A stretch of 64,000 nt of DNA from Escherichia coli (GTDB taxonomy: Bacteria; Pseudomonadota; Gammaproteobacteria; Enterobacterales; Enterobacteriaceae): the NCBI RefSeq assembly GCF_003018235.1, contig NZ_CP027437.1. One strand, 5' to 3'. This document shows positions 1 through 64,000 of the stretch, in pieces (positions within the stretch are counted from its first letter, which is position 1; the number at the start of each line of letters is the position of its first letter). A program made the position numbers and the translations under genes. Under the pieces are notes generated by a model, which was not told where the DNA came from, did no database searches, and was given only the letters and a program-made list of their open reading frames with translations.

Positions 1-6
1 GATATA

Positions 7-435: not shown

Positions 436-508
436 TGCAAGCTACTCCATATGTATAAAATGAAAATTCACATAGTTCTAACTAGCTAATATATAACAAC
501 CGATTTCT

Positions 509-3500
509 CTATTTTATGATTGGCGGTACAATTGGAGGTGTCACTGGTGGTAAGTATACTTGACCAAGTTTAGCCCCAGCAGAACGGTTAAGAGAATAAT
601 GATCCAAATAATAATTTTTTGAATCCAGCATCCAATCCCTGACAGGTTTAGACTTCGGCCCCAAAAATCTACCAGTATTATTCCACCATGTAACGGCATC
701 TGTCTTATGAGACATATCTGCTTCACTTAATGGATGCCAGACACCTTCAGAATCTTTAAACTCCATCCGGGAACCTGTCCCTCTAATTTTTCCATCATTT
801 CTCATCCGAGCAATAACCTCACGGCCTGTTCGGCTATTCTTCCCTGGGGTTCTTCCTAAGAAATCACAACGTTTTGACAGCCCTAATGGGTCAATCCACC
901 CCAGCGGATTAGGCGCATAAGCATACAGGTTCAGCCCGCCCGCCAGCCCTATCGGGTCCGTTACCATGAACCGCCCGACATCCGGATCATAGTACCTGTG
1001 CAGATTGTAATGCAGCCCCGTTTCCCTGTCGAGGTACTGTCCCTGGTAGCGCAGGTTCTGCTCCACCCCGCCGTGGTCCTTCTCCTGTATCGTGTTACCC
1101 CAGACCTGATACCCCGTCTCCCACACGATTTTCCCGTCGCTGTCCGTCATCTCTTCCGGCGCGCCGTTCACATCCGTGTGAAAATACAGTATCCGGTTCG
1201 GGCCCTCTTTACCCACCTTATCCACCCGCGCCAGCGGTTCATAACTCCCCGGGTCGCTGTAGATATACAGGCTGCTTATTCCCTCCGGCCTGCTCTCCTG
1301 CGCCAGCCGCATTCCGTCCCATAAAAATGTCGTCCGGTTGTACGGTTTACCGTCAGGGCTGATGTGCTGTTTTTCCGTCCGCCTCCCCAGCGCATCGTAC
1401 ACATACCGGTACGTTCCCCGCGCTGTCGTCACTTCCACCATCCGGTGTTCCGCATCATAACGGTAACTCTGCGTGCCGCTCCGGCCCTCCTTTTCCACCG
1501 CACGGCCAAATTCGTCGTAACGGTAGTGCACACCACGGTAAGACATCAGCCGGTTGAACGGCACCACGCTGTTTTCTGCCGTGGCCCTTTCCCCCGCGCG
1601 CCGCGCCAGCAGGTTTCCCGCCGCGTCGTACTCCCAGCTCGCCAGATACCCCTCATCCTCCGAGCGGCACGCCGTGATGCGCCCCGTGGGGTCGTAGAAG
1701 TAATCCGTTTCCCCCCGCCGGCTGTGCCGCGTCTTCAGCAGTTCATCCTCGCCGCTGTAGCTGTACTGCCGGTCCGTGAACGTCTCCGGTACCACCCCGC
1801 GCATCCCGCTGTATGTCTCCCTGCGCTTCAGCCGCCCGGCGGGGTCATAAAGCTGCCGCGTGCTCAGTCGCCCCTGACTTCTGAGCACTTCCCGGTGCAG
1901 GGCGTCACGTGTGAACTCGCTGATGACCTCCCGGTCCAGATTTATCTGCTGGAGATGGCCGCTGCCGTAGTACAGATGACGCTGCGTTCTGCCGTCCGGA
2001 AAGGAGGTGGCTGTCCGGTTGCTGAGTTCATCGTACTGATGGGTCAGGACGCCCTGCGCCGTCTCCTCAGTCAGCATCCGCCCCAGTCTGTCGTAACTGA
2101 AGCGGATAATCTCCGGTGCGTCCATTTCCCCGGCATCCGACCGTCGGCGGCGGATTTCCAGTAGCTGGTCTGCCGCATCATGGACGTATTCCGTACGGCT
2201 ATCGGCTGTCTCCTTTGCCGTGAGCCGGCCCGCCGCATCACGTGCCAGCCGGTGGCGGATTTCACCGCCCCGGTCCCCTGTGAACACCACTTCCGTGACC
2301 GCGTTCAGCACGTTGTAACGGTACGTCTGGCGGCAGCCGTCCGGATTTATCTGCTCCGCCAGACGGTCCAGCACATCATGGCGGAACCGGTAGTTTTCTC
2401 CGTTCTCGTTCGTGAGCGTGACCAGACGCCCGTAAGCATCGTACCCGAACGCCGTCCTGCGCCCCGTCGCGTCTGTCCGGCTGCGCACCCGGCCCTGCCC
2501 GTCCCGCTGCCAGCGCGTTATCCTCCCCATCGGGCTGGTGTACTTCACGAGCCTGCCCGCCGCGTCCGACTGGTAATTCACCGTGCGGCCGTCCGCCAGT
2601 ATCACCTCCGTCAGGTGGCCGCTGTCGTCATACCCGTAGCGCGTGCTGTGGCTCTGCGCGTCTGTCATCCGTATCAGCCGCGTGCGTTCGTCGTAGAACC
2701 AGGCCGTCTGCGAGCCGGAACAGTCCGTGTGCCGCATGAGCTGTCCGTCTTCGTTCCACTGAAGGTATTTATTCCCCCCGCGCGCATCCGTTATCTGCAC
2801 CACCTGACCGTGGCGGTCATACTGATACCGGGTGTTCTGCTGCAGCGGGTCGGTCACCGCAAGAAGATTGCCGCGTTCATCGTACTCACAGCACCAGCTG
2901 TTCCCCGCCGCGTCCACCTCCGTTTCCGGCTGGTGCCACACCGGGTGCCACTGTGTCTGTGCCACCCGCCCCAGCGGGTCGTGCGTCTCCGTGATATGCC
3001 CCTGCCGGTCATACACATAGCGCCATTTGCCGCCCTGCGCATCGGTCATTCCCAGTAACAGCCGTTCTTCGTCGCTCCAGCGGAACGTCGTCACCTGCCC
3101 GGCTTCGTCCTGGTACGCCGTCACCTGGTTCTGCGCGTCCCACTGATGATAACGCGTGCGCCCCAGCCCGTCCGTCACGCACAGCCTGCGTGCCGCGAGG
3201 CTCCACGCCAGCCGGTACTGTTCACCGCTGTCCGTGTGGTGCCCCGTCACCCGCCACGCTGCGTCATCCGGGCCTTCATACCAGCCCCACTGGTAATAAT
3301 ACCCTTCGCCGCCCGGCTGGCGGTGCAGGGTCATGCAGTGGTTTTCGTCGTAAGCAAACTCGCGCAGCAGGTGCCCCGTGCTGTCGTACACGCCGTTCAG
3401 GTCGCCGGCCTCGTCATAGCGGTAACGACGCAGCAGTAAAGGAGCCGTCTCAGGGAAATGCTGATAAATCTGTGTCACCCGCCGGGGATGCGCCGCCAGT

Positions 3501-5188
3501 TCATAATGCAGACGGATGCACGGACGCTGCTGTTCACCGCTGATTTGCGTGATGCGCCCCAGCTCGTCGTAGTACAGATTCAGACAGTTGCTGTTGCGGT
3601 CGCCCAGCATTTTCAGCCGCTGGTGCTGCGGGTGATGCGGGTCGGCTTCAAACAGAAAAAACTGCCCGTCATCGCTGCTGATAAGCCAGTGCCCCTGCTC
3701 ACCCCGCCGTACTGCCAGTCCTTCGCCGGGGCTGTAAAACCCGCTCCCCGGCAGCACAGCCTCCATATCCAGGCGTCGTCCCATGCCCGACACAAAGGTC
3801 ATACAGTTTTCGTCAGCAGTACCCGGCGTGCGCACGAGGCTGACTTCATACATCACGCTCCAGCCCTGCCCGAACATCCCTTCCGTGCGGTCGTCACGAC
3901 TGCTGTACACGCGCTGCCAGTCCAGCGGAAAGTGGCCCGGCAGACTGAAGTCAAAATCATCGTCATCGGCCAGATATTTGGCTCCGGTGGCGGCATTGAC
4001 CGGATGCGGAAGGGCACTGATGGCCTTCTGCGTCATCACCCCCATCCCGACACTGGCAGCAAAACAGGCGATTTTAGAAAGCATTTTGCCCGGGCGAAGA
4101 AACATCAGCGCCACGGTTGCCACCAGGGTTATCTGCGACCTGCCGCTTCTGATATCCCTGACCACCAGTAACGGACCGCCAATGCGGACATCCGGTGACA
4201 CAAACGCCCCGTTCCCCGGCTCATTCACCACCCTGGCCTCGCAGGTGCAGCGTGCCCCGCTGCGTGCCGCCGGCTGGCTGTTGATACGCACATCCCGCGC
4301 GCCTTCCGCGATATATTCCGCTGCGGGCGGTTCATCATCGCCTTTGAACAGATTACTGATGCTGCCAATAACCGCATTCACTCCCTGAAAGGCGGTTTCC
4401 AGCATACCGCCCGGACTCAGCAGGTTAAGGGCCGTTCCCAGGGGGTCATCCAGAAAGGCGGCTTTTTTTTGTGCGAGAAACTGCGTCAGTGAGGAGGGAT
4501 GTTTATGGCAGTCGATTTTATCGTCAGGGGTCGGGGTGGAGCCCGGGGCCGCACTGGCCACGGTGGGCTGCCATAGTTCCGACACAAAATGTGTCACGCC
4601 ATCCACCATTTCAGAACGCCCTTCTTCCGTACTGAGCTGGTCATGCAGCGCCCGGGACATCAGCACAGGCCCTGTCACCGGGTTAACCGCCAGGGCTATG
4701 GCCCCCGCCATTTCCAGATATTCCCCGGCCACATCCAGGAACGTTCTGGCGTCCTCCTGACGCTGCGCTTCTTCCTGTTCCGCCTTCGCCTGCGCCTCCT
4801 GCGCCTCAATGTCCTGCCGCGATGCCGCAGTCGCCGCGGCCCGCGCGGCAGGTTTGCTGTTGATCCATGTGTCGCCAGAGCCGGTGAGGATGTAACCTTC
4901 AATCTGAGGCGGGAAAAGCATATTTGCGAGGTCTGAACAGACTTCGCTGACCTTTTCTGTCACGCCGGTGTACACCATCGCCACACCCGCCACAAAACCG
5001 GTCAGCACGACGGCCGTGCACCCCATAGTGATCCCCGCTGACGTCGCCAGTAACGAGGTTGTGCCGACAATGAGGGCATCAATAACGACATTTGCGGCCA
5101 CCTCCAGCACCGCCCCCAGCACATCTGCCATAAACGACGTATGCAGCAGGGCATCACCCTGCCTTGCCGCCCAGAATGCCTCTTCCAT
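509..5188 (-). CDS. Rhs-family polymorphic toxin (1559 aa): prePAAR/PAAR N-terminus, YD-repeat shell, DPLGL boundary, variable 122-aa C-terminal tip
   Basis: ATG at 5188. N-terminus carries AARQGDALLH (prePAAR consensus AARxxDxxxH), hydrophobic stretches at residues ~23-75, and PAAR tetrapeptides at residues 113-116 and 306-309. Many YD repeats (YRYDEAGDL, YQYDRHGQ, YGYDDSGHL). Core ends PNPLGWIDPLGL; the last 122 aa (nt 512-877) are AT-rich. Confidence 0.9.
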   Translation of the reverse strand: MEEAFWAARQGDALLHTSFMADVLGAVLEVAANVVIDALIVGTTSLLATSAGITMGCTAVVLTGFVAGVAMVYTGVTEKVSEVCSDLANMLFPPQIEGYILTGSGDTWINSKPAARAAATAASRQDIEAQEAQAKAEQEEAQRQEDARTFLDVAGEYLEMAGAIALAVNPVTGPVLMSRALHDQLSTEEGRSEMVDGVTHFVSELWQPTVASAAPGSTPTPDDKIDCHKHPSSLTQFLAQKKAAFLDDPLGTALNLLSPGGMLETAFQGVNAVIGSISNLFKGDDEPPAAEYIAEGARDVRINSQPAARSGARCTCEARVVNEPGNGAFVSPDVRIGGPLLVVRDIRSGRSQITLVATVALMFLRPGKMLSKIACFAASVGMGVMTQKAISALPHPVNAATGAKYLADDDDFDFSLPGHFPLDWQRVYSSRDDRTEGMFGQGWSVMYEVSLVRTPGTADENCMTFVSGMGRRLDMEAVLPGSGFYSPGEGLAVRRGEQGHWLISSDDGQFFLFEADPHHPQHQRLKMLGDRNSNCLNLYYDELGRITQISGEQQRPCIRLHYELAAHPRRVTQIYQHFPETAPLLLRRYRYDEAGDLNGVYDSTGHLLREFAYDENHCMTLHRQPGGEGYYYQWGWYEGPDDAAWRVTGHHTDSGEQYRLAWSLAARRLCVTDGLGRTRYHQWDAQNQVTAYQDEAGQVTTFRWSDEERLLLGMTDAQGGKWRYVYDRQGHITETHDPLGRVAQTQWHPVWHQPETEVDAAGNSWCCEYDERGNLLAVTDPLQQNTRYQYDRHGQVVQITDARGGNKYLQWNEDGQLMRHTDCSGSQTAWFYDERTRLIRMTDAQSHSTRYGYDDSGHLTEVILADGRTVNYQSDAAGRLVKYTSPMGRITRWQRDGQGRVRSRTDATGRRTAFGYDAYGRLVTLTNENGENYRFRHDVLDRLAEQINPDGCRQTYRYNVLNAVTEVVFTGDRGGEIRHRLARDAAGRLTAKETADSRTEYVHDAADQLLEIRRRRSDAGEMDAPEIIRFSYDRLGRMLTEETAQGVLTHQYDELSNRTATSFPDGRTQRHLYYGSGHLQQINLDREVISEFTRDALHREVLRSQGRLSTRQLYDPAGRLKRRETYSGMRGVVPETFTDRQYSYSGEDELLKTRHSRRGETDYFYDPTGRITACRSEDEGYLASWEYDAAGNLLARRAGERATAENSVVPFNRLMSYRGVHYRYDEFGRAVEKEGRSGTQSYRYDAEHRMVEVTTARGTYRYVYDALGRRTEKQHISPDGKPYNRTTFLWDGMRLAQESRPEGISSLYIYSDPGSYEPLARVDKVGKEGPNRILYFHTDVNGAPEEMTDSDGKIVWETGYQVWGNTIQEKDHGGVEQNLRYQGQYLDRETGLHYNLHRYYDPDVGRFMVTDPIGLAGGLNLYAYAPNPLGWIDPLGLSKRCDFLGRTPGKNSRTGREVIARMRNDGKIRGTGSRMEFKDSEGVWHPLSEADMSHKTDAVTWWNNTGRFLGPKSKPVRDWMLDSKNYYLDHYSLNRSAGAKLGQVYLPPVTPPIVPPIIK

Positions 5189-5206
5189 GTCCCGTTCCCT
5201 GTGTGA

Positions 5207-5436
5207 TTAATTCGTCCCGGCTTCCTGCCGCATCCTGAAGCGCAGATTCTTTTTAATTTCAGCCCAGCGCGTCATATCTGCCGGGGTCAGCGGTGTGGTT
5301 CTGGCGTAGGTGAAGGCCATCATGACCCGCTCACCCGGCAATACAAATGCCACCTGACACTGGTACACCTGCTCGTTACCCCGGAGAAACTGGCTCTGTA
5401 TTTGCAAACCGCCTCATTGAGATAATATTCCGTCAT
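5207..5436 (-). pseudogene. Disrupted short ORFs immediately upstream of rhs; possible remnant of an effector-associated chaperone gene
   Basis: A 66-aa ORF (5207-5407, TTG start) ends 19 bp before the rhs start. An ATG at 5436 with an upstream AGGA opens a different frame that stops at 5320. No intact ORF of chaperone size. Assignment is positional inference only. Confidence 0.2.
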
Positions 5437-6190
5437 AATAGAAGTCGTCCTTTTTAATAAATGAATTATTTATTGACAGGTTCTGTTTTTTAATCATGAA
5501 TGTAATGTCTATCACCGCTTTACAGCACTCTTTATCTTTCAAGCGGTAATCACTAATAACATTAAGCAATTACCCATATTTACAATGACCGGAACTGATA
5601 TGCCGTTATGTATTTAACAATCCCAACATATTCACCATACCAATAAAATCACGAGTAACAAACACGCTACCGCCTCCATATAAAAAATGGACAGCTTATA
5701 AAATTGCATCTTGCATAGAAAGGGCTGAGATATCGAGTGTATTTTAATTATCAACTATAAATCTTGAATATTTTCATTAACAGAAACACATCTTATCCCA
5801 TTAGATATGTTAACAATCAATTATTCTTAACATATCACTAAAGTATATATTACTCTCTTTACTATCTGTTTTTATTGCGGTAGCGATATTAATAGCAAAA
5901 TTCGGAATTTATTTAGATGCTGGAATAAGAAAAAATGATGACGGCTTTCTTACCTTACCCTGAAGTTTCAGGAAAGTGTGTAAGGAAGGATGCAACCTAA
6001 CTGGAGATTTCTGAGGATCTAGTTGCTTAGAGCGACAATGAAGGTGAACGCATCCAGAGTAGTCCTATGAAAGGATACTATTGAAAATTGATGCTAAAAC
6101 AGTGATTAAATGAACAACACCATGGAACCCGTTGATTCAAAACGCCTAAACCAGCCCCCTGATACGAGGCTGGCTTAAACGCGCAGGCAA

Positions 6191-6397: not shown

Positions 6398-6606
6398 ACT
6401 TTTCTCCCCCTTTTGTATCTACCCGGTGAATGGCACCGGAAAAATGAATTTGTTTATCTGATGAAAATAGTACCGCCTTTTGTGTAATTTTACTACTCAT
6501 CCGACCACTTATTTTTGCTTATTGATGGTTTATTTACATTCATACCGTAATTAAGTTACACAAAGGTTAAATTAATACTAAACATTAGTTAAATCATGGC
6601 TTTTGC

Positions 6607-6675
6607 CATTTTTATACTTTTTTTACACCCCGCCCGCAGATTTTTGCGAAATCTTTGCAGCCAGAATTCTACCCT
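6607..6675 (+). promoter_or_regulatory. kdpFABC promoter region with KdpE-binding direct repeat
   Basis: T-rich direct repeat TTTTTATACTTTTTTTACACC about 80 bp upstream of kdpF, followed by TTGCGA as a -35 candidate. Matches the recalled KdpE box; exact -10 uncertain. Confidence 0.5.
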
Positions 6676-6709
6676 TCCGGTATCACTTTTAGGCCACTGG
6701 AGGTGCACT

Positions 6710-6799
6710 GTGAGTGCAGGCGTGATAGCCGGCGTGTTGCTGGTGTTTTTATTACTGGGTTATCTGGTTTATGCCCTGATCAATGCGGAGGCGTTCTGA
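6710..6799 (+). CDS. kdpF: KdpF, K+-ATPase small subunit (29 aa)
   Basis: GTG start; translation [29 protein letters not shown]; stop overlaps the kdpA ATG. Below the ORF-track size cut-off. Confidence 0.85.
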
Positions 6800-11124: not shown

Positions 11125-13801
11125 CGAACCCTTACGTCCCGACCCCGATCGTCTGCTGGAACAAACTGCCGCGCCGCATCGGGGGAAGCTGAAAGTTTTC
11201 TTCGGTGCCTGCGCAGGCGTCGGGAAGACCTGGGCGATGCTGGCAGAAGCCCAGCGACTGCGGGCGCAAGGGCTGGATATTGTGGTTGGCGTGGTAGAAA
11301 CCCACGGGCGGAAAGATACCGCCGCAATGCTGGAAGGGCTGGCTGTTCTGCCGTTAAAACGCCAGGCGTACCGTGGGCGGCACATCAGCGAGTTTGATCT
11401 CGATGCCGCCCTCGCCCGCCGTCCGGCACTGATCTTAATGGACGAACTGGCGCACAGTAATGCGCCAGGTTCTCGTCATCCTAAACGCTGGCAGGACATC
11501 GAAGAGCTGCTGGAAGCTGGCATTGATGTTTTCACAACCGTCAACGTTCAGCATCTGGAAAGTCTGAATGATGTGGTCAGCGGCGTCACCGGAATTCAGG
11601 TACGGGAAACCGTGCCCGATCCTTTTTTCGATGCCGCCGACGACGTGGTGCTGGTGGACTTGCCCCCGGACGATCTGCGTCAACGGCTGAAAGAAGGTAA
11701 AGTCTATATTGCCGGGCAGGCGGAACGCGCCATTGAACATTTTTTTCGCAAAGGCAATCTGATCGCCCTGCGCGAACTGGCACTGCGCCGTACTGCCGAT
11801 CGCGTAGATGAGCAAATGCGCGCCTGGCGGGGGCATCCTGGCGAAGAGAAAGTCTGGCACACGCGCGACGCGATCCTTTTATGCATCGGGCATAACACCG
11901 GCAGCGAAAAACTGGTCCGCGCGGCGGCGCGGCTGGCGTCACGGCTGGGTAGCGTCTGGCACGCGGTGTATGTTGAAACCCCTGCCCTGCATCGCTTACC
12001 GGAGAAAAAACGTCGGGCAATTCTCAGCGCCTTACGTCTGGCGCAGGAGCTGGGCGCAGAGACGGCAACACTTTCTGATCCAGCGGAAGAGAAAGCGGTA
12101 GTGCGTTATGCCCGTGAACATAATCTTGGCAAGATTATTCTCGGTCGCCCGGCCTCGCGCCGCTGGTGGCGTCGGGAAACGTTTGCTGACCGACTGGCGC
12201 GCATCGCCCCCGATCTCGATCAGGTGCTGGTCGCGCTTGATGAACCACCCGCCCGCACGATAAACAACGCGCCGGATAGCCGCTCTTTTAAAGACAAGTG
12301 GCGGGTACAGATTCAGGGATGCGTGGTTGCCGCCGCGTTATGCGCCGTTATCACCTTAATTGCCATGCAGTGGCTGATGGCGTTTGATGCCGCCAACCTG
12401 GTGATGCTGTATCTACTTGGCGTGGTGGTGGTGGCGCTATTTTATGGGCGCTGGCCTTCGGTGGTTGCTACCGTCATTAATGTGGTGAGTTTCGATCTCT
12501 TTTTTATCGCCCCACGCGGCACGCTCGCCGTCTCTGATGTGCAATATCTGCTGACCTTCGCGGTGATGTTAACCGTCGGGCTGGTGATCGGGAACCTTAC
12601 TGCTGGCGTTCGTTATCAGGCGCGGGTAGCCCGTTACCGCGAGCAACGCACACGGCACTTATATGAAATGTCGAAAGCTCTGGCGGTGGGCCGCAGTCCG
12701 CAGGACATCGCCGCCACCAGCGAACAATTTATTGCCTCCACGTTTCATGCCCGCAGTCAGGTGTTGTTGCCCGATGACAACGGTAAATTGCAGCCGTTAA
12801 CACATCCGCAAGGAATGACGCCGTGGGACGATGCCATCGCGCAGTGGAGTTTTGATAAAGGCCTGCCTGCGGGCGCGGGCACCGACACGTTACCCGGTGT
12901 ACCGTACCAGATTTTGCCGCTAAAAAGCGGCGAGAAAACCTACGGGCTGGTGGTGGTGGAACCGGGGAATCTGCGCCAGTTGATGATCCCGGAACAGCAA
13001 CGCCTGCTGGAGACGTTTACGCTGTTAGTCGCCAATGCCCTTGAGCGGCTGACACTGACCGCCAGCGAAGAACAGGCGCGGATGGCAAGCGAACGAGAAC
13101 AGATCCGCAACGCCCTGCTGGCGGCGCTTTCGCATGATTTACGCACGCCGCTTACGGTGCTGTTCGGTCAGGCAGAAATCTTAACGCTCGATCTGGCGAG
13201 CGAAGGATCGCCCCACGCCCGCCAGGCCAGCGAGATTCGTCAGCATGTGCTGAACACGACCCGACTGGTGAATAATCTACTGGATATGGCGCGAATTCAG
13301 TCCGGCGGCTTTAATTTGAAGAAAGAGTGGTTAACGCTGGAAGAAGTGGTCGGCAGCGCGCTGCAAATGCTGGAACCGGGTTTATCGTCGCCCATCAATC
13401 TTTCTCTGCCAGAACCGCTGACCTTAATCCACGTTGACGGGCCACTCTTTGAACGGGTGCTGATTAATCTGCTGGAGAACGCGGTGAAATACGCGGGTGC
13501 GCAGGCCGAAATTGGTATCGATGCCCACGTTGAGGGCGAAAATCTACAACTGGATGTCTGGGATAATGGCCCCGGTCTTCCGCCAGGCCAGGAGCAGACG
13601 ATATTTGATAAGTTTGCTCGCGGGAATAAAGAGTCGGCGGTACCGGGTGTAGGGCTTGGGCTGGCAATTTGTCGGGCGATTGTGGATGTACACGGCGGCA
13701 CCATTACCGCGTTCAACCGACCGGAAGGTGGTGCCTGTTTTCGTGTTACACTTCCCCAGCAAACTGCCCCTGAACTTGAAGAATTTCATGAGGATATGTG
13801 A
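11117..13801 (+). CDS. kdpD: KdpD sensor histidine kinase (894 aa)
   Basis: ATG at 11117 ([16 protein letters not shown]...) overlaps the kdpC stop; Walker-type GVGKT, membrane segments and C-terminal histidine kinase domain. Confidence 0.95.
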
Positions 13802-36533: not shown

Positions 36534-36610
36534 GGCTACGTAGCTCAGTTGGTTAGAGCACATCACTCATAATGATGGGGTCACAGGTTCGAATCCCGTC
36601 GTAGCCACCA
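36534..36610 (+). tRNA. metT: tRNA-Met (elongator, anticodon CAU)
   Basis: 77-nt GGCTACGTAGCTCAGTTGGTTAGAGCACATCACTCATAATGATGGGGTCACAGGTTCGAATCCCGTCGTAGCCACCA with encoded CCA. Confidence 0.95.
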
Positions 36611-36620
36611 TCTTTTTTTT

Positions 36621-36705
36621 GCGGGAGTGGCGAAATTGGTAGACGCACCAGATTTAGGTTCTGGCGCCGCAAGGTGTGCGAGTTCAAGTCTCGCCTCCCG
36701 CACCA
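36621..36705 (+). tRNA. leuW: tRNA-Leu (anticodon UAG), class II with long variable arm
   Basis: 85-nt GCGGGAGTGGCGAAATTGGTAGACGCACCAGATTTAGGTTCTGG...CGCACCA. Confidence 0.95.
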
Positions 36706-36728
36706 TTCACCAGAAAGCGTTGTACGGA

Positions 36729-36803
36729 TGGGGTATCGCCAAGCGGTAAGGCACCGGTTTTTGATACCGGCATTCCCTGGTTCGAATCCAGGTACCCCAG
36801 CCA
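36729..36803 (+). tRNA. glnU: tRNA-Gln (anticodon UUG)
   Basis: 75-nt TGGGGTATCGCCAAGCGGTAAGGCACCGGTTTTTGATACCGG...CCAGCCA. Confidence 0.95.
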
Positions 36804-36837
36804 TCTTCTTCGAGTAAGCGGTTCACCGCCCGGTTAT

Positions 36838-36912
36838 TGGGGTATCGCCAAGCGGTAAGGCACCGGTTTTTGATACCGGCATTCCCTGGTTCGAATCCAG
36901 GTACCCCAGCCA
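36838..36912 (+). tRNA. glnW: tRNA-Gln (anticodon UUG), second copy
   Basis: Identical to the glnU sequence. Confidence 0.95.
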
Positions 36913-36927
36913 TCGAAGAAACAATCT

Positions 36928-37004
36928 GGCTACGTAGCTCAGTTGGTTAGAGCACATCACTCATAATGATGGGGTCACAGGTTCGAATCCCGTCGTAGCC
37001 ACCA
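36928..37004 (+). tRNA. metU: tRNA-Met (elongator, anticodon CAU), second copy
   Basis: Identical to the metT sequence. Confidence 0.95.
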
Positions 37005-37052
37005 AATTCTGAATGTGTCGAATATGTTCGGCAAATTCAAAAACCAATTTGT

Positions 37053-37127
37053 TGGGGTATCGCCAAGCGGTAAGGCACCGGATTCTGATTCCGGCATTCC
37101 GAGGTTCGAATCCTCGTACCCCAGCCA
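37053..37127 (+). tRNA. glnV: tRNA-Gln (anticodon CUG)
   Basis: 75-nt TGGGGTATCGCCAAGCGGTAAGGCACCGGATTCTGATTCCGG...CCAGCCA. Confidence 0.95.
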
Positions 37128-37164
37128 ATTTATTCAAGACGCTTACCTTGTAAGTGCACCCAGT

Positions 37165-37239
37165 TGGGGTATCGCCAAGCGGTAAGGCACCGGATTCTGA
37201 TTCCGGCATTCCGAGGTTCGAATCCTCGTACCCCAGCCA
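37165..37239 (+). tRNA. glnX: tRNA-Gln (anticodon CUG), second copy
   Basis: Identical to the glnV sequence. Confidence 0.95.
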
Positions 37240-38713: not shown

Positions 38714-40138
38714 ATGACCAAAAAACTCCATATTAAAACCTGGGGCTGTCAGATGAACGAGTACGATTCATCGAAGATGGCCGATCTGCTGGATGCCACC
38801 CACGGCTATCAACTGACCGACGTGGCGGAAGAAGCGGATGTGCTGCTGCTGAACACCTGCTCAATCCGCGAGAAGGCTCAGGAAAAAGTCTTCCATCAGT
38901 TGGGTCGCTGGAAACTGTTAAAAGAGAAGAATCCAGACCTGATTATCGGCGTCGGCGGCTGCGTGGCATCGCAAGAAGGTGAGCACATTCGCCAGCGCGC
39001 CCACTATGTCGATATTATTTTTGGGCCGCAAACGCTGCACCGTCTGCCGGAGATGATCAACTCCGTGCGCGGCGACCGCAGCCCGGTTGTAGATATCAGC
39101 TTCCCGGAAATCGAGAAGTTTGACCGTCTGCCGGAACCGCGTGCCGAAGGGCCGACCGCGTTTGTCTCCATCATGGAAGGCTGCAATAAATATTGTACCT
39201 ACTGCGTAGTGCCTTACACCCGTGGTGAAGAGGTAAGCCGTCCGTCCGACGATATTCTGTTTGAGATCGCCCAGCTTGCGGCTCAGGGCGTGCGTGAAGT
39301 CAACCTGCTCGGTCAGAACGTGAACGCCTGGCGTGGTGAAAACTACGACGGCACCACCGGATCGTTTGCCGATCTGCTGCGTCTGGTTGCTGCGATCGAC
39401 GGGATCGATCGTATTCGCTTTACCACCAGCCATCCGATCGAATTCACCGACGATATCATCGAAGTGTACCGCGACACGCCGGAGCTGGTGAGCTTCCTGC
39501 ATCTGCCGGTGCAGAGCGGTTCCGATCGCATTCTGAACCTGATGGGACGTACCCATACAGCGCTGGAGTACAAAGCGATCATCCGTAAGCTGCGTGCGGC
39601 GCGTCCGGATATTCAGATCAGTTCTGACTTCATCGTTGGCTTCCCTGGCGAAACCACCGAAGACTTCGAGAAAACGATGAAGCTGATTGCCGACGTCAAT
39701 TTCGACATGAGCTACAGCTTTATCTTCTCCGCTCGTCCAGGTACACCAGCCGCCGACATGGTTGATGATGTTCCGGAAGAAGAGAAGAAGCAGCGTCTGT
39801 ATATTCTGCAAGAACGCATTAATCAGCAAGCGATGGCATGGAGCCGCCGAATGCTCGGCACCACCCAGCGTATTCTGGTAGAAGGTACATCGCGTAAGAG
39901 CATCATGGAGCTTTCCGGTCGCACTGAAAATAACCGCGTGGTTAACTTCGAAGGTACACCGGATATGATCGGTAAATTCGTCGATGTAGAAATTACCGAC
40001 GTCTACCCGAACTCTCTGCGCGGTAAAGTGGTGCGAACTGAAGATGAAATGAGTCTGCGCGTGGCAGAAACACCGGAATCGGTGATTGCCCGTACCCGCA
40101 AAGAAAACGACCTTGGCGTGGGTTATTATCAGCCGTAA
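38714..40138 (+). CDS. miaB: MiaB, tRNA methylthiotransferase (474 aa)
   Basis: Radical-SAM CxxxCxxC (CNKYCTYC) and C-terminal TRAM domain; divergent from ubiF. Confidence 0.97.
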
Positions 40139-40290
40139 TTCTCAGGCCCGCCGTTCCGGTGGGCCTTGTTTTTTCTCTCTTTATCCCCATCTTTATCGCA
40201 ATGCTTGCGCCTTTTTCCTGTGGCGTGAATAATTTCCTTATAGGCCGGTGAATGTTCAGCTTCCGGCGGCATACAGATAAGAGGAACGGT

Positions 40291-41331
40291 TTGAACATAG
40301 ACACTCGCGAAATCACCCTGGAGCCAGCAGACAACGCGCGTCTGTTGAGCCTGTGCGGCCCGTTTGATGACAACATCAAGCAGCTCGAACGCCGTCTCGG
40401 CATCGAGATCAATCGCCGCGATAACCACTTTAAACTGACCGGCCGTCCGATTTGCGTCACCGCTGCGGCAGACATTCTGCGTAGCCTGTATGTCGATACC
40501 GCCCCGATGCGCGGTCAGATTCAGGATATCGAACCGGAACAGATCCACCTTGCGATTAAAGAAGCGCGGGTACTGGAGCAAAGCGCGGAGAGCGTGCCGG
40601 AGTACGGCAAAGCGGTCAATATCAAAACCAAACGCGGCGTAATCAAGCCGCGCACGCCAAACCAGGCGCAGTACATTGCCAATATTCTCGACCATGACAT
40701 CACCTTCGGCGTTGGCCCGGCGGGTACGGGTAAAACCTACCTGGCAGTGGCTGCGGCAGTTGATGCCCTGGAGCGTCAGGAAATTCGCCGTATTCTGCTG
40801 ACTCGTCCGGCGGTCGAAGCCGGTGAGAAACTGGGCTTCCTGCCTGGCGATTTAAGCCAGAAAGTAGACCCGTATCTGCGCCCACTGTACGACGCGCTGT
40901 TTGAAATGCTGGGCTTTGAGAAAGTCGAGAAACTGATTGAGCGCAACGTTATTGAAGTCGCGCCGCTGGCCTATATGCGTGGTCGTACGCTGAACGACGC
41001 GTTTATCATTCTCGATGAGAGCCAGAACACCACCATCGAACAGATGAAGATGTTCCTGACCCGTATCGGTTTTAACTCAAAAGCGGTTATCACCGGCGAC
41101 GTCACACAGATCGACCTGCCGCGTAATACCAAGTCAGGCTTGCGTCACGCCATCGAAGTGCTGGCCGATGTTGAAGAGATCAGCTTTAACTTCTTCCACA
41201 GCGAAGACGTGGTTCGTCACCCGGTGGTGGCGCGTATCGTTAACGCTTATGAAGCCTGGGAAGAAGCAGAACAAAAACGTAAAGCGGCGCTGGCAGCAGA
41301 ACGCAAGCGCGAAGAACAGGAACAAAAATGA
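40291..41331 (+). CDS. ybeZ: YbeZ, PhoH-like ATPase (346 aa from TTG; 359 aa if the ATG at 40252 is used)
   Basis: Walker [12 protein letters not shown] at 40291 has AAGAGGA 5 nt upstream and gives the recalled K-12 length; the ATG at 40252 has a weaker RBS. Confidence 0.85.
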
Positions 41332-42787: not shown

Positions 42788-44326
42788 ATGGCTTTTGCCT
42801 CATTAATTGAACGCCAGCGCATTCGCCTGCTGCTGGCGTTATTATTCGGTGCCTGCGGAACGCTGGCCTTCTCTCCTTACGACGTCTGGCCTGCGGCGAT
42901 TATTTCGCTGATGGGGCTTCAGGCGCTGACCTTTAACCGCCGTCCACTCCAGTCTGCCGCTATTGGCTTTTGCTGGGGATTTGGCCTCTTTGGCAGCGGT
43001 ATTAACTGGGTCTATGTCAGCATCGCGACCTTTGGCGGAATGCCTGGCCCGGTTAACATCTTCCTGGTGGTACTGCTGGCGGCGTATTTGTCGCTGTATA
43101 CCGGATTATTTGCTGGCGTGCTGTCGCGTCTGTGGCCGAAAACCACCTGGCTGCGCGTGGCGATTGCCGCCCCTGCTCTCTGGCAAGTGACCGAGTTTCT
43201 GCGCGGTTGGGTGCTGACTGGTTTCCCGTGGTTACAGTTCGGCTATAGCCAGATTGATGGCCCGTTAAAAGGGCTGGCACCGATAATGGGCGTGGAAGCC
43301 ATTAACTTCCTGCTAATGATGGTTAGCGGCCTGCTGGCACTGGCGTTGGTTAAACGCAACTGGCGTCCGATGGTGGTGGCCGTCGTGCTGTTCGCCCTTC
43401 CCTTCCCGCTGCGTTACATCCAGTGGTTTACCCCGCAACCGGAGAAAACCATTCAGGTTTCGATGGTTCAGGGCGATATTCCGCAATCGCTGAAGTGGGA
43501 CGAAAGCCAGCTTCTTAATACGCTGAAAATTTATTACAACGCGACGGCACCGCTGATGGGCAAATCGTCGCTGATTATCTGGCCGGAGTCGGCGATAACC
43601 GATCTGGAAATTAATCAGCAACCGTTCCTCAAAGCACTGGACGGTGAGTTGCGTGATAAAGGTAGCTCGCTGGTAACCGGGATTGTCGACGCGCGTCTCA
43701 ATAAGCAGAACCGCTACGATACCTACAACACCATCATCACGCTGGGTAAAGGTGCACCGTACAGCTACGAATCAGCCGATCGCTATAACAAAAACCATCT
43801 GGTGCCGTTTGGCGAGTTTGTCCCGCTGGAGTCGATTCTGCGTCCGTTAGCGCCGTTCTTTGATCTGCCGATGTCGTCGTTCAGCCGTGGGCCATATATC
43901 CAGCCACCGCTGTCGGTAAACGGTATTGAGCTTACTGCGGCTATTTGCTACGAGATCATTCTTGGCGAGCAAGTGCGTGATAACTTCCGCCCGGATACCG
44001 ATTATCTGCTGACTATCTCCAACGATGCATGGTTTGGTAAGTCTATTGGTCCATGGCAGCACTTCCAGATGGCGCGAATGCGTGCGCTGGAGCTGGCGCG
44101 CCCGCTGCTACGCAGCACCAACAACGGCATTACGGCGGTGATTGGCCCGCAGGGTGAGATTCAGGCGATGATCCCGCAATTCACCCGCGAGGTGTTAACC
44201 ACTAACGTGACACCGACCACCGGACTCACACCGTACGCACGTACCGGCAACTGGCCGCTGTGGGTACTGACGGCACTGTTTGGTTTTGCTGCTGTGCTGA
44301 TGAGCCTGCGTCAACGACGTAAATAA
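42788..44326 (+). CDS. lnt: Lnt, apolipoprotein N-acyltransferase (512 aa)
   Basis: N-terminal membrane segments then nitrilase-fold domain with the catalytic-Cys region (AAICYEI). Confidence 0.95.
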
Positions 44327-44722
44327 TCCCTTCTTATCGTGCCGGAATACATCCCGTATTTCGGCACGCTCACCGGATGCGGCATCAGTGCGTTATCCGG
44401 ATTACAAAATTCCCCTATCCAACTTTGGCACATCTATTGCTTTGTTATACAAGGCAAAGCTTGAACCAGCATCAGTACAACCCGGTTGCACCACAGCAAT
44501 CCACGGGTAGCACCAAAAGAGTGCATTTTAAGAATTTTGCTTCGGAATGGTGCGGCGCATCTCGCAAAAACAAACAATAAAACAGCAATATCTTTACATT
44601 TAGCCAAACTAAATGTTACCTAACAAGCACAACACTGCACAATAAAGTTGCAGATGATAACAACACAAACACTCACAACGGGTATCCATGCGTTCTTAAC
44701 GCAGAAGATAAAGGAGTTGGAT

Positions 44723-45631
44723 ATGCAATTACGTAAACCTGCCACAGCAATCCTGGCCTTGGCGCTTTCCGCAGGACTGGCACAGGCAGATGACGCCGCC
44801 CCGGCAGCGGGCAGTACGCTGGACAAAATCGCCAAAAACGGTGTGATTGTCGTCGGTCACCGTGAATCTTCAGTACCTTTCTCTTATTACGACAATCAGC
44901 AAAAAGTGGTGGGTTACTCGCAGGATTACTCCAACGCCATTGTTGAAGCAGTGAAAAAGAAACTCAACAAACCGGACTTGCAGGTAAAACTGATTCCGAT
45001 CACCTCACAAAACCGTATTCCACTGCTGCAAAACGGCACTTTCGATTTTGAATGTGGTTCTACCACCAACAACGTCGAACGCCAAAAACAGGCGGCTTTC
45101 TCTGACACTATTTTCGTGGTCGGTACGCGCCTTCTGACCAAAAAGGGCGGCGATATCAAAGATTTTGCCGACCTGAAAGGCAAAGCCGTAGTCGTCACTT
45201 CCGGCACTACCTCTGAAGTTTTGCTCAACAAACTGAATGAAGAGCAAAAAATGAATATGCGAATTATCAGCGCCAAAGATCACGGTGACTCTTTCCGTAC
45301 CCTGGAAAGCGGTCGTGCCGTTGCCTTTATGATGGATGATGCTCTGCTGGCTGGTGAACGTGCGAAAGCGAAGAAACCAGACAACTGGGAAATCGTCGGC
45401 AAGCCGCAGTCTCAGGAAGCCTACGGTTGCATGTTGCGTAAAGACGATCCGCAGTTCAAAAAGCTGATGGATGACACCATCGCGCAGGTGCAGACCTCCG
45501 GTGAAGCGGAAAAATGGTTTGATAAATGGTTCAAAAATCCAATTCCGCCGAAAAACCTGAACATGAATTTCGAACTGTCAGACGAAATGAAAGCACTGTT
45601 CAAAGAACCGAATGACAAGGCACTGAACTAA
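44723..45631 (+). CDS. gltI: GltI, glutamate/aspartate periplasmic binding protein (302 aa)
   Basis: ATG at 44723 after AAGGAG; signal peptide MQLRKPATAILALALSAGLAQA. Confidence 0.95.
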   Translation: MQLRKPATAILALALSAGLAQADDAAPAAGSTLDKIAKNGVIVVGHRESSVPFSYYDNQQKVVGYSQDYSNAIVEAVKKKLNKPDLQVKLIPITSQNRIPLLQNGTFDFECGSTTNNVERQKQAAFSDTIFVVGTRLLTKKGGDIKDFADLKGKAVVVTSGTTSEVLLNKLNEEQKMNMRIISAKDHGDSFRTLESGRAVAFMMDDALLAGERAKAKKPDNWEIVGKPQSQEAYGCMLRKDDPQFKKLMDDTIAQVQTSGEAEKWFDKWFKNPIPPKNLNMNFELSDEMKALFKEPNDKALN

Positions 45632-45788
45632 TTACAAGAACCAGGGGCGGAAATTCCAGCCCTCTCGATTGTTACGTAGCACGGACAGACTATACGCCTG
45701 ATGGTCGTTCCCCATCGGGCCTGAAAACCGCAATACGCTGGGTAACAATCTTCGAGGGTAGCAGTTAACGCTGCTACCCTCTTTTTTC
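45632..45788 (+). ncRNA. sroC: SroC sRNA (processed gltI-gltJ spacer, GcvB sponge)
   Basis: Whole gltI-gltJ intergenic spacer, ending in GAGGGTAGCAG-TTAACG-CTGCTACCCTC hairpin plus TTTTTT (45754-45788). Assigned from recalled K-12 location; 5' end approximate. Confidence 0.55.
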
Positions 45789-45800
45789 TGGAGTAGATTT

Positions 45801-48057: not shown

Positions 48058-48993
48058 ATGGCACTGCCAATTCTGTTAGATTGCGACCCAGGTCATGATG
48101 ACGCTATCGCAATAGTTCTCGCCCTCGCCTCACCAGAGCTTGATGTCAAAGCAATTACGTCTTCCGCCGGAAACCAGACACCAGAAAAAACCTTACGCAA
48201 TGTTCTGCGTATGCTGACCTTGCTTAATCGCACCGATATTCCGGTGGCAGGCGGCGCGGTAAAACCGTTAATGCGTGAGTTGATTATCGCGGACAATGTG
48301 CACGGTGAAAGCGGTCTCGACGGCCCGGCATTACCGGAACCGACGTTCGCACCGCAAAACTGTACGGCGGTGGAGCTGATGGCGAAAACGCTGCGTGAAA
48401 GTGAGGAACCTGTCACGATTGTGTCTACCGGACCGCAAACTAACGTTGCCTTGCTGCTCAATAGCCATCCGGAACTGCATAGCAAAATCGCCCGTATCGT
48501 GATTATGGGCGGCGCAATGGGGCTTGGTAACTGGACGCCAGCCGCCGAGTTTAATATTTATGTTGACCCGGAAGCGGCAGAAATTGTTTTCCAGTCAGGG
48601 ATCCCGGTGGTGATGGCCGGTCTGGATGTTACTCATAAAGCGCAAATCCACGTTGAAGACACCGAGCGTTTCCGCGCGATTGGCAACCCTGTTTCAACCA
48701 TTGTTGCCGAACTGCTGGATTTCTTCCTCGAATATCATAAAGACGAAAAATGGGGTTTTGTCGGCGCACCGCTGCATGACCCATGCACCATCGCCTGGCT
48801 GTTGAAACCGGAGTTGTTTACCACTGTTGAGCGCTGGGTTGGCGTGGAAACACAAGGGAAATATACCCAGGGTATGACGGTTGTTGATTATTATTATCTG
48901 ACTGGCAATAAACCGAATGCCACTGTAATGGTCGATGTTGATCGTCAGGGCTTTGTTGATTTACTGGCTGATCGTCTGAAATTTTACGCTTAA
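48058..48993 (+). CDS. rihA: RihA, pyrimidine-specific ribonucleoside hydrolase (311 aa)
   Basis: ATG at 48058 gives [22 protein letters not shown] (nucleoside hydrolase DxDxxxDD motif). Confidence 0.95.
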
Positions 48994-49037
48994 TCACTCG
49001 CCGGATGACATCACGCCATCCGGCACCACTCATTTCA

Positions 49038-49520
49038 TTACGGCTCGAACGGGCGTCTCTGGAACTGGTCATGACCACATTTCGGGCATAGCGTCAGCAC
49101 TTCCGGTGTATAGATCGGGAGATGGAAATGACATTTCTCGCAGACCAGATTACCCAGCCCTACCACTTCTCCGCTGTGATAAACCCCGTGATGATTGAGG
49201 TCCTGGAAAACTTCGCGCCATTCAAGCTGCGTTTTATCGGTGATGTCTGCCAGCTCCTGCCACAAGCTTTCTTTAATCACCCGCATAAAGACGCTGTCAG
49301 ACTCTTCTTTCAGGCTCTCTTCATAGCTCATGGCGAACTCTTCCAGGTCACGTCTGACAGCTCGCGTCAGCTCATCGACTTCGGTTCGCGTTAACTCCCC
49401 TGTTTTTATTACGCGCTCGCGCGCCTGTTCCACCAGTGCGTCGATATCACGTTCGCCATTGCGCAGGCGTTCGCTCAGTGACGCGACCAGTTCACGGTAA
49501 TATTGAGCAACCTTGTTCAT
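49038..49520 (-). CDS. ybeL: YbeL, DUF1451 zinc-ribbon protein (160 aa)
   Basis: C-terminal CxxC...CxxC pair (CEKCHF / CPKCGH); divergent from leuS as in K-12. Confidence 0.8.
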   Translation of the reverse strand: MNKVAQYYRELVASLSERLRNGERDIDALVEQARERVIKTGELTRTEVDELTRAVRRDLEEFAMSYEESLKEESDSVFMRVIKESLWQELADITDKTQLEWREVFQDLNHHGVYHSGEVVGLGNLVCEKCHFHLPIYTPEVLTLCPKCGHDQFQRRPFEP

Positions 49521-52351: not shown

Positions 52352-52933
52352 GTGCGATATCTGGCAACATTGTTGTTATCTCTGGCGGTGTTAATCACCG
52401 CCGGGTGTGGCTGGCATCTGCGTGATACCACGCAGGTTCCTTCCACTATGAAGGTCATGATCCTGGACTCAGGCGATCCGAACGGGCCATTAAGCCGTGC
52501 GGTGCGTAACCAGTTACGTCTGAATGGTGTCGAGTTGCTTGATAAAGAAACCACGCGTAAGGACGTTCCATCCCTGCGTTTGGGTAAAGTGAGCATCGCG
52601 AAAGATACCGCATCGGTATTCCGTAACGGTCAAACAGCAGAGTATCAGATGATCATGACGGTCAATGCGACCGTGTTGATCCCCGGCCGTGACATCTACC
52701 CGATTAGCGCCAAAGTCTTCCGTTCGTTCTTCGATAACCCGCAAATGGCGTTAGCGAAAGATAACGAACAAGACATGATCGTAAAAGAGATGTACGACCG
52801 TGCTGCCGAACAGCTGATTCGTAAGCTGCCAAGCATCCGTGCTGCGGATATTCGTTCCGACGAAGAACAGACGTCGACCACAACGGATACTCCGGCAACG
52901 CCTGCACGCGTCTCTACCACGCTGGGTAACTGA
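52352..52933 (+). CDS. lptE: LptE (RlpB), LPS-assembly lipoprotein (193 aa)
   Basis: GTG start; lipobox LITAGC; stop overlaps the holA ATG. Confidence 0.93.
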
Positions 52934-55483: not shown

Positions 55484-55819
<336 letters not shown>

Positions 55820-55822
55820 TGC

Positions 55823-56290
55823 GTGAAGCTGCAACTTGTCGCCGTGGGAACGAAAATGCCGGACTGGGTACAAACTGGTTTTACCGAGTACCTGCGTCGT
55901 TTTCCGAAAGATATGCCCTTCGAGCTGATTGAAATTCCGGCCGGAAAACGCGGCAAGAATGCGGACATCAAGCGCATACTCGACAAAGAGGGTGAGCAGA
56001 TGTTGGCGGCCGCAGGCAAAAACCGCATTGTCACCCTCGATATTCCAGGCAAGCCCTGGGATACGCCGCAGTTAGCCGCTGAGCTGGAACGCTGGAAGCT
56101 GGATGGTCGCGACGTCAGTCTACTGATTGGCGGGCCTGAAGGGTTGTCGCCTGCCTGTAAAGCGGCGGCGGAGCAGAGCTGGTCGCTGTCGGCGCTTACC
56201 CTTCCCCATCCGCTGGTTCGCGTGCTGGTCGCAGAGAGTCTGTACCGGGCGTGGAGCATCACCACCAACCATCCTTATCACCGTGAGTGA
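55823..56290 (+). CDS. rlmH: RlmH (YbeA), 23S rRNA pseudouridine-1915 methyltransferase (155 aa)
   Basis: GTG start 4 bp after the rsfS stop; SPOUT-fold translation [16 protein letters not shown]... Confidence 0.93.
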
Positions 56291-61787: not shown

Positions 61788-61840
61788 AAATCGAACACTT
61801 GAAAGTGTAATTTCCGTCCCCATATACTAAGCATCAGTAA

Positions 61841-62259: not shown

Positions 62260-62901
62260 TTGTATCAGGATAAAATTCTTGTCCGCCAGCTCGGTCTTCA
62301 GCCTTACGAGCCAATCTCCCAGGCTATGCATGAATTCACCAATACCCGCGATGATAGTACCCTTGATGAAATCTGGCTGGTCGAGCACTATCCGGTATTC
62401 ACCCAAGGGCAGGCAGGAAAGGCGGAGCACATTTTAATGCCGGGTGATATTCCGGTGATTCAGAGCGATCGCGGTGGGCAGGTGACTTATCACGGGCCGG
62501 GGCAACAGGTGATGTATGTGTTGCTTAACCTGAAACGCCGTAAACTCGGTGTGCGTGAACTGGTGACCTTGCTTGAGCAAACAGTGGTGAATACCCTGGC
62601 TGAACTGGGTATAGAAGCGCATCCTCGGGCTGACGCGCCTGGTGTCTATGTCGGGGAAAAGAAAATTTGCTCACTGGGTTTACGTATTCGACGCGGTTGT
62701 TCATTCCACGGTCTGGCATTAAACGTCAATATGGATCTTTCACCATTTTTACGTATTAATCCTTGTGGGTATGCCGGAATGGAAATGGCTAAAATATCAC
62801 AATGGAAACCCGAAGCGACGACTAATAATATTGCACCACGTTTACTGGAAAATATTTTAGCGCTACTAAACAATCCTGACTTCGAATATATTACCGCTTA
62901 A
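62260..62901 (+). CDS. lipB: LipB, octanoyltransferase (213 aa)
   Basis: TTG at 62260 gives (M)[17 protein letters not shown]...; the ORF-track ATG at 62212 adds 16 residues. Confidence 0.9.
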
Positions 62902-63160: not shown

Positions 63161-64000
63161 GTGGATAGTAATAATCAAATTGAAACCTGTTTAAGCAGAA
63201 AGTCGTCAGAAGGTAAACCACAAATATTTACAACCTTACGAAATATTGATCTTAACCTTCTGACTATTTTTGAAGCTGTATATGTACATAAAGGGATCGT
63301 TAATGCAGCGAAAGTGCTTAATCTGACACCCTCGGCAATCAGTCAGTCTATTCAGAAACTGCGCGTTATATTCCCTGACCCATTGTTTATTCGCAAAGGC
63401 CAGGGTGTCACTCCTACCGCATTTGCGATGCATCTACATGAGTATATCAGTCAGGGCCTTGAGTCCATTCTTGGCGCGCTGGATATCGAAGGAAGCTATG
63501 ATAAGCAACGAACGATAACTATTGCGACCACCCCCTCAGTCGGAGCCTTGGTCCTTCCTGTCATCTATCGGGCGATTAAAACTCACTATCCGCAGCTTTT
63601 ACTGCGCAACCCGCCCATCAGCGACGCGGAAAACCAACTCAGTCAGTTTCAAACCGATCTCATCATCGATAACATGTTTTGCACCAATCGTACGGTGCAA
63701 CATCATGTTCTGTTCACCGACAATATGGTGTTAATTTGCCGTGAGGGAAATCCACTACTCTCTTTAGAAGATGACAGGGAGACTATCGACAACGCTGCGC
63801 ATATACTCCTGTTACCGGAAGGGCAAAATTTCAGCGGTCTGCGGCAGAGAGTTCAAGAGATGTTTCCGGACCGGCAAATCAGTTTCACCAGCTACAACAT
63901 TTTGACAATCGCTGCACTGGTTGCCAACAGTGACATGTTAGCGATTATTCCCAGCCGTTTTTATAACCTGTTTAGCCGTTGTTGGCCGCTGGAAAAACTG
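63161..64000 (+). CDS. ybeF: YbeF, LysR-family transcriptional regulator (3' end beyond window)
   Basis: GTG at 63161 after GGAGTAAG; hand translation VDSNNQIETCLSRKSSEGKPQIFTTLRNIDLNLLTIFEAVYVHKGIVNAAKVLNLTPSAISQSIQKLR... stays open to the window end. Missing from the ORF track because it has no stop. Confidence 0.85.
   Translation, partial: MDSNNQIETCLSRKSSEGKPQIFTTLRNIDLNLLTIFEAVYVHKGIVNAAKVLNLTPSAISQSIQKLRVIFPDPLFIRKGQGVTPTAFAMHLHEYISQGLESILGALDIEGSYDKQRTITIATTPSVGALVLPVIYRAIKTHYPQLLLRNPPISDAENQLSQFQTDLIIDNMFCTNRTVQHHVLFTDNMVLICREGNPLLSLEDDRETIDNAAHILLLPEGQNFSGLRQRVQEMFPDRQISFTSYNILTIAALVANSDMLAIIPSRFYNLFSRCWPLEKL

Follow-up and report, generated by a model that had tools for sequence, protein, structure and literature searches.

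The ybeZ start codon in Escherichia coli and its conservation across Enterobacterales

The gene ybeZ can be read from two start-type codons in the same frame, and the question arises at which of them translation begins and what the use of a weak, non-ATG codon might mean for this gene. The locus lies in a stretch of 64,000 nucleotides, called the window hereafter, which is a segment of the E. coli chromosome running from kdpF to ybeF. The lineage of the strain differs from K-12, as the window is 99.8% identical to AR_0067 and only 95–99% identical to most E. coli genomes. The coding sequences annotated in AR_0067, the closest genome, were mapped onto the window and gave 52 starts, from ybfA/kdpF (~6.2 kb) to ybeF (64 kb), the majority of them on the + strand. 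Of 5426 complete E. coli genomes, 5424 contain a match to a segment of 1.4 kb around the ybeZ start, the highest identity being 99.8%. Around ybeZ, the conserved gene order miaB-ybeZ-ybeY-corC-lnt is found, and the product carries the PhoH domain (PF02562, 329 bits at a gathering cut-off of 27, residues 131–334 of the 359-aa translation), which it shares with PDB entry 3B85 (E = 6e-80).

Initiation at the two candidate codons

Both candidates of the original prediction, an ATG at 40252 (359 aa) and a TTG at 40291 (346 aa), are present in one frame, 39 nt or 13 codons apart, and a TGA at 40249–40251 directly precedes the ATG. A weak ribosome-binding site had been proposed for the ATG and a strong one, AAGAGGA, for the TTG, and this was confirmed, the best anti-Shine-Dalgarno match before the ATG being TAGG. 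If a Shine-Dalgarno-led site is defined as AUG, GUG or UUG with a complement to the 16S 3' end 5–9 nt upstream, the TTG constitutes such a site, with AAGAGGA, a 5-nt spacer and a canonical start codon, and the same arrangement was found in 73 of 73 orthologous loci. The preference for the TTG that was implied in the original prediction proved correct in view of RefSeq, initiation profiling and an N-terminal peptide. The start had nevertheless been presented as ambiguous, a point that is settled for the TTG by the RefSeq annotation and the data of PMC4909307.

In the closest genome, RefSeq places the start at TTG 40291, and it does so as well in four other E. coli genomes that were examined. 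K-12 (b0660, ECK0652; U00096.3/NC_000913.3; PMC4909307) has the same gene with the TTG start, 346 aa and the ATGA overlap seen in the window, and in MG1655 (NC_000913.3) the TTG form is annotated at 692338..693378 (1041 nt, 346 aa, NP_415193.2). By combining tetracycline mapping of initiating ribosomes with COFRADIC enrichment of N-terminal peptides, Nakahigashi et al. 2016 (PMC4909307, Table S2) reported a new initiation of ybeZ at the TTG, 39 nt beyond the ATG annotated in 2006. In K-12 cells growing exponentially at 37 °C, the TetRP read depth was 79.0, 79.3 and 45.2 at the TTG versus 0, 0 and 0 at the 2006 ATG, and the N'-peptide entry is given as 'new annotation', i.e. the TTG form. According to the same table, the 2014 GenBank record was already in agreement with the TTG.

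Between -93 and +20 of the TTG, the K-12 sequence does not differ from that of the window, and the K-12 profiling and peptide data therefore transfer directly to it; two single nucleotide differences lie further upstream, at -142 within the miaB terminator stem and at -94. Ribosome profiling and N-terminal proteomics had been suggested as the means to check the start; the published K-12 data give the TTG form and refute the long form. The TTG start of ybeZ is thus already known from the reference annotation and the 2016 start mapping. Nothing on ybeZ was found in the supplements of the TRAINSPOTTER N-terminomics and the Salmonella riboproteogenomics studies, and a full-text literature search for 'ybeZ' with 'TTG' gave no result on the ybeZ start.

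It is almost certain that ybeZ is translated from the UUG at 40291 into a PhoH-like ATPase of 346 aa and that the upstream ATG is non-initiating 5' UTR. This reading builds on the position of initiating ribosomes and the N-terminus observed in K-12 with its identical sequence, on the annotation and on the evolutionary pattern. The strong Shine-Dalgarno sequence AAGAGGA, 5 nt upstream, would place the 30S subunit on the UUG, and the ATG 13 codons upstream would be part of the 5' UTR, lying downstream of the sigma-32 transcription start site (TSS) and lacking a Shine-Dalgarno sequence, where no initiation would take place. UUG is a weaker initiator than AUG, and its combination with a strong Shine-Dalgarno sequence could set a moderate, precisely placed initiation rate. 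The ATGA stop/start overlap might then pass this rate on to ybeY.

There is practically no chance that the ATG at 40252 is the sole true start, which would correspond to the 359-aa form annotated for K-12 in 2006 and given by many automated calls. The reading from this ATG is the longest open reading frame with an ATG and a public 359-aa cluster of 4504 members contains it, but the initiation signal at the ATG is zero and the recorded N-terminal peptide is that of the short form (PMC4909307). Extended YbeZ calls are still present in public protein sets: apart from the 359-aa E. coli cluster, a Salmonella call of 361 aa starting at a GTG at -13 (1344 members, NCBI) as well as calls of 380 aa (Pectobacterium) and 392 aa (Edwardsiella) were found. 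The database forms of 359 and 361 aa are gene calls and not evidence of a start. The correct N-terminus decides the cloning and tagging of YbeZ and the searching of proteomics data, so the practical stake is one of annotation hygiene.

Initiation at both codons has also been considered, with the ATG at 40252 and the TTG at 40291 giving proteoforms of 359 and 346 aa, the long form perhaps only in heat shock under sigma-32. The ATG is in frame, directly follows a stop codon and is contained in both predicted transcripts, and 28 E. coli genes with two initiation sites were reported in PMC4909307, which share with ybeZ the presence of two in-frame start-type codons less than 60 nt apart on one transcript. 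In ybeZ, unlike these genes, initiating ribosomes and the N-terminal peptide were found at one site only and the upstream codon is not conserved. In the K-12 profiling and proteomics, which sampled exponential growth at 37 °C, TetRP was nevertheless 0 at the ATG in all three samples, only the short-form N-terminal peptide was recorded (PMC4909307) and the ATG at 40252 has no Shine-Dalgarno sequence. With the comparison of orthologues given below, dual initiation is considered very improbable.

Table 1. Features of the ybeZ locus and other non-ATG starts, in window positions
Feature	Position	Strand	Basis
miaB CDS, upstream neighbour of ybeZ	38714..40138	+	99.6% identity to RefSeq miaB
miaB intrinsic terminator, 10-bp stem 40144–40166 followed by T-run	40144..40175	+	terminator scan
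sigma-32 promoter of ybeZ: cTTGttt 40165–40171, 13 nt, CCCCATcT 40185–40192, TSS 40200	40165..40200	+	motif and validated TSS
sigma-70-like promoter in leader: TTGCGC 40205–40210, 17 nt, AATAAT 40228–40233	40205..40233	+	hexamer conservation
Inverted repeat GCCGG 40244–40248 / CCGGC 40263–40267, 14-nt loop containing the ATG	40244..40267	+	sequence
In-frame ATG, not used as start (former 359-aa annotation)	40252..40254	+	TetRP 0/0/0; no Shine-Dalgarno; poor conservation; no codon periodicity
Shine-Dalgarno AAGAGGA, 5 nt before TTG	40279..40285	+	sequence; Shine-Dalgarno kept across 73 loci
ybeZ TTG start codon	40291..40293	+	RefSeq start; TetRP 79/79/45; N-terminal peptide; TTG in 73/73 loci
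ybeZ CDS, 346 aa, PhoH-like ATPase	40291..41331	+	Pfam PF02562 E = 1.2e-98; RefSeq WP_001018040.1
ATGA overlap, ybeZ stop/ybeY start	41328..41331	+	sequence; kept in 70/80 loci
kdpF GTG start	6710..6712	+	RefSeq, K-12 CDS length
kdpE GTG start, GTGA overlap with kdpD stop	13798..13800	+	RefSeq, K-12 CDS length
lptE GTG start	52352..52354	+	RefSeq, K-12 CDS length
rsfS TTG start	55502..55504	+	RefSeq, K-12 CDS length
rlmH GTG start	55823..55825	+	RefSeq, K-12 CDS length
lipB TTG start, first ATG 22 codons downstream	62260..62262	+	RefSeq, K-12 CDS length
ybeF GTG start, CDS runs off window	63161..63163	+	RefSeq, K-12 CDS length

Conservation of the start in Enterobacterales

Eighty Enterobacterales loci encoding YbeZ were compared, 73 of them from outside the Morganellaceae with an alignment reaching residue 1 and seven from Morganellaceae. 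Downstream of ybeZ, ybeY was found in all 80 loci and corC in 79. The codon aligned to YbeZ residue 1 is TTG in each of the 73 loci, which span Escherichia to Yersinia, Serratia, Erwinia, Pantoea, Pectobacterium, Dickeya, Edwardsiella, Hafnia and Budvicia, and it is preceded by AGAGGA, AAAGGA or GAGGA at a distance of 5–7 nt. In the same alignment, 71 four-fold degenerate sites fall on invariant residues and all of them vary (mean major-allele frequency 0.58), so that the TTG is retained beyond what is seen at neutral sites, as would be expected of a regulatory non-AUG start. Leu codon 10 of ybeZ drifts between CTT (33 loci), CTG (25) and TTA (11); the TTG, if it were an internal Leu codon, would drift likewise, and its invariance is a further argument against the ATG as sole start. 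As controls from the same loci, the start of corC was ATG in 79 of 79 and that of ybeY was ATG in 74 of 80; two Yersinia have GTG for ybeY.

Only 7 of the 80 loci, from Escherichia, some Citrobacter and Kluyvera, carry an ATG in frame at -13, and Salmonella has a GTG at this position. An in-frame stop within 13 codons upstream of the TTG, found in 32 of the 73 loci, rules out a 13-codon extension there, and 27 of the 73 loci have no other upstream start-type codon at all. In one Citrobacter, a 1-nt insertion throws the homologous ATG out of frame, and another Citrobacter has ATA instead. Hence the orthologues show no conserved upstream start with an extension, and the frameshifting indel, the loss of the ATG in close relatives and the stops all speak against dual initiation.

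The conservation of upstream codons, which had also been proposed as a check, was analysed in the clade in which a start codon has been retained at -13. Over the 39 nt that precede the TTG, 7, 5 and 6 columns are variable at codon positions 1, 2 and 3, compared with 2, 2 and 28 in ybeZ codons 2–40, and no coding constraint was detected upstream of the TTG. These 39 bases appear to evolve like non-coding DNA, with a coding-type pattern beginning at the TTG. The 13-residue extension is superficially similar in Salmonella and Citrobacter, which might be taken to favour two proteoforms. However, the likeness between MFSFRRHTDKRNG (E. coli) and VFSVRRYRHKRNS (Salmonella) was rejected as a sign of coding, since it is explained by the nucleotides of the conserved CCGGC arm and the Shine-Dalgarno sequence, and the changes in the variable part fall on all three codon positions. 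Within the species, 4684 of 5424 E. coli genomes carry the 65-nt segment 40236–40300 unchanged, and the variation (sampled variants 40269 G>A and 40258 A>T) was uninformative on start choice.

The seven Morganellaceae loci have no TTG, and the conserved EI-LEPADN block is preceded there by a single start candidate, a GTG with its own Shine-Dalgarno sequence. In all seven, this GTG precedes the position aligned to E. coli residue 1 by 5–6 codons, and the miaB-ybeZ spacer is only ~30 nt long there, without promoter motifs or TTG. A non-AUG start of ybeZ thus appears to be present in all 80 loci. The depth of TTG conservation is known within Enterobacterales, the order at which the reach of the protein homology search ended.

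In Erwiniaceae and Yersiniaceae (L035–L070), a conserved leader motif, GGCCCTGAGTGACCCAAAGGA, lies ~30 nt upstream of the TTG, and an in-frame GTG is found at -6 directly after a TGA. In Yersinia, an 18-nt tandem duplication provides this GTG with its own AGAGGA. There may be a second start-site ambiguity in the genera with the -6 GTG, with the TTG still invariant.

The ybeZ leader and the junction to ybeY

The only experimentally validated TSS of ybeZ is that of a sigma-32 promoter at MG1655 position 693469 (Nonaka 2006, as cited in the Reg-Seq supplement). It lies 91 nt upstream of the TTG and corresponds to window position 40200. The promoter overlaps the tail of the miaB terminator, its -10-like CCCCAT/CCCAAATAT is kept across families, and ybeZYX has been described as sigma-32 induced (PMC6943124). 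Further downstream, both hexamers of a sigma-70-like promoter, TTGCGC and AATAAT, are conserved from Escherichia to Yersinia and Pectobacterium. This promoter was not called by a consensus scan because its -35 element matches at only 3 of 6 positions. Its position fits the Reg-Seq supplement, which gives an RNAP index of 144, falling on the AATAAT, and a repressor-like site at +15..+29 (window 40215–40229). The respective TSS would be expected at ~40240, downstream of the mapped sigma-32 TSS. As the mapped sigma-32 TSS and the predicted sigma-70 TSS are both upstream of the ATG, it is not the transcript structure that decides the start but ribosome placement.

The unused ATG lies in the loop of an inverted repeat whose arms are conserved in Escherichia, Salmonella, Citrobacter and Kluyvera. 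No covariation was found in the repeat, the predicted fold of the leader (40236–40330) was no better than that of shuffled sequence (z = +1.27), and the ybeZ leader matched no Rfam family. The heptamers ATGTTCA (40252–40258), with the unused ATG, and TGAACAT (40292–40298), covering the TG of the TTG and the codons after it, are exact reverse complements of each other. A conserved anti-start pairing of these two elements was considered and rejected, since the pair occurs only in Escherichia and Citrobacter and the fold is no more stable than shuffled sequence.

At the other end of the gene, the translation of ybeY is probably coupled to that of ybeZ via the ATGA overlap. Databases contain fused YbeZ-YbeY reading frames of 504–514 aa (P0001 with 56 members, P0021 and P0036), and the junction ...EQK|MSQV... 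matches the insertion of a single A into the CAAAAATGA run where ybeZ and ybeY overlap (window 41320–41331). Programmed -1 frameshifting at CAAAAATGA was set aside as a source of these fusions, since the A-run is not kept from genus to genus; errors in homopolymers or rare indels seem more likely.

The retained weak start and other non-ATG starts in the window

The order-wide non-AUG start of ybeZ is the one mildly new point beyond the existing annotation. Selection generally favours AUG, and UUG, described as a weaker start, switches to AUG or GUG at roughly half the rate of four-fold sites (Belinky et al. 2017, PMC5622118). The retention of TTG throughout the order despite this general preference suggests selection for limited expression, and the pattern may accordingly point to limited or coupled synthesis of YbeZ and YbeY as the selected trait. 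A more specific proposal is that the non-AUG start is a selected control element which, together with the strong Shine-Dalgarno sequence and the ATGA overlap, would cap or couple YbeZ-YbeY synthesis and might be sensitive to 30S fidelity; we regard this as a rather unlikely proposal.

YbeZ and YbeY are a 16S 3'-end maturation pair, and immature 30S subunits have been reported to initiate more readily at non-AUG codons. If the proposal is true, a fidelity-sensitive ybeZ start would provide ribosome maturation with a homeostatic feedback. The version in which IF3 is sensed is weakened, as UUG is one of the class I start codons (AUG, GUG and UUG) that are not strongly rejected by IF3. At present, it is conservation alone that would argue for a selected or fidelity-sensing start. 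The biological stake is small, concerning a weak start kept across an entire bacterial order.

The AUU start of infC is autoregulated through IF3. Similar to such regulatory weak starts, ybeZ is a translation-related gene on which a non-AUG start has long been kept; it differs from infC in that UUG is in the class against which IF3 does not strongly discriminate and in that its Shine-Dalgarno sequence is strong, not weak. The ybeZ gene is not known to be autoregulated. Like ybeZ, lipB in the window has an annotated TTG start, and ATG-only calling would truncate it by 22 codons, whereas, unlike ybeZ, it faces no competing ATG in frame upstream, and its Shine-Dalgarno sequence, GGAG, is weaker. 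The initiation codon of lipB is TTG in Shewanella oneidensis as well (PMC4398509), and long-term retention of a TTG start is therefore not unique to ybeZ.

The original prediction had listed eight genes with non-ATG starts, ybeZ included. All eight coordinates were right, each being the start of a RefSeq coding sequence in the 99.8%-identical genome, and the lengths of the coding sequences are the same in K-12 MG1655. That they form a run could not be upheld, as they occur at background frequency and are not clustered. With an expected AUG/GUG/UUG usage of ~82/14/4% (PMC9841429), 8 non-ATG starts among the 52 compare with 9.4 expected (P for at least 8 = 0.74) and 3 TTG starts with 2.1 expected (P = 0.35), and the scan statistic for at least five non-ATG starts in 13 consecutive genes gave P = 0.21. 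A meaningful cluster, for instance of co-regulated ribosome or envelope genes sharing weak starts, has only a slim chance of being real in view of these values: GTG or TTG opens 5 of the last 13 genes of the window and ybeZ, rsfS and rlmH are all ribosome-associated, but the eight genes belong to at least six different operons and have unrelated functions. The other seven are ordinary annotated starts at background frequency. They are absent from the table of changed starts by TetRP in PMC4909307, which means that their older starts were unchallenged and no more.

It had further been claimed that ATG-only calling by length mis-sets starts in this region. Mis-setting as such is real, as the longest open reading frame disagrees with the annotation in 18 of the 52 genes, among them kdpA, pgm, seqA, asnB and leuS, but in four of these five ATG-only calling is not the cause. 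In kdpA, pgm, seqA and asnB, the longest frame is extended by an upstream in-frame TTG or GTG and the longest ATG frame equals the annotation, and among the five named genes only leuS has an upstream in-frame ATG. For kdpF (GTG 6710, 29 aa), an ATG lies in the same frame 38 codons further upstream (window 6596–6712), and kdpF is therefore the only other non-ATG gene here for which a longest-ORF caller would choose an upstream ATG. The start of asnB is in an ATGTG context, a type studied in PMC9841429.

Some further features of the window were noted. Positions 1–6190 are an RHS element with a 1559-aa reading frame on the minus strand (509–5188) and a small downstream reading frame (7–435); this region has matches in only 237 of 5426 complete E. 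coli genomes, and its first ~900 nt, comprising the toxin tip and a presumed immunity gene, have no counterpart in the best matches. Compared with K-12, the ybeQ-ybeR-djlB-ybeT-ybeU-djlC-hscC island is absent between ybeL and rihA (window 48993–49038) and IS5D is absent between gltI and lnt (window 44326–44723). An IS200C copy, present between glnS and nagE in AR_0067, is likewise missing from the window. Seven tRNA genes are clustered between asnB and ubiF (window 36534–37236), and the small RNA sroC was found at the 3' end of gltI (window 45627–45789, 175 bits). Upstream of ybeD (window 61798–61825), there is a perfect sigma-32 consensus, CTTGAAA, 13 nt and CCCCATAT, in a stretch that was synthesised as a putative CRP site in PMC4398509.
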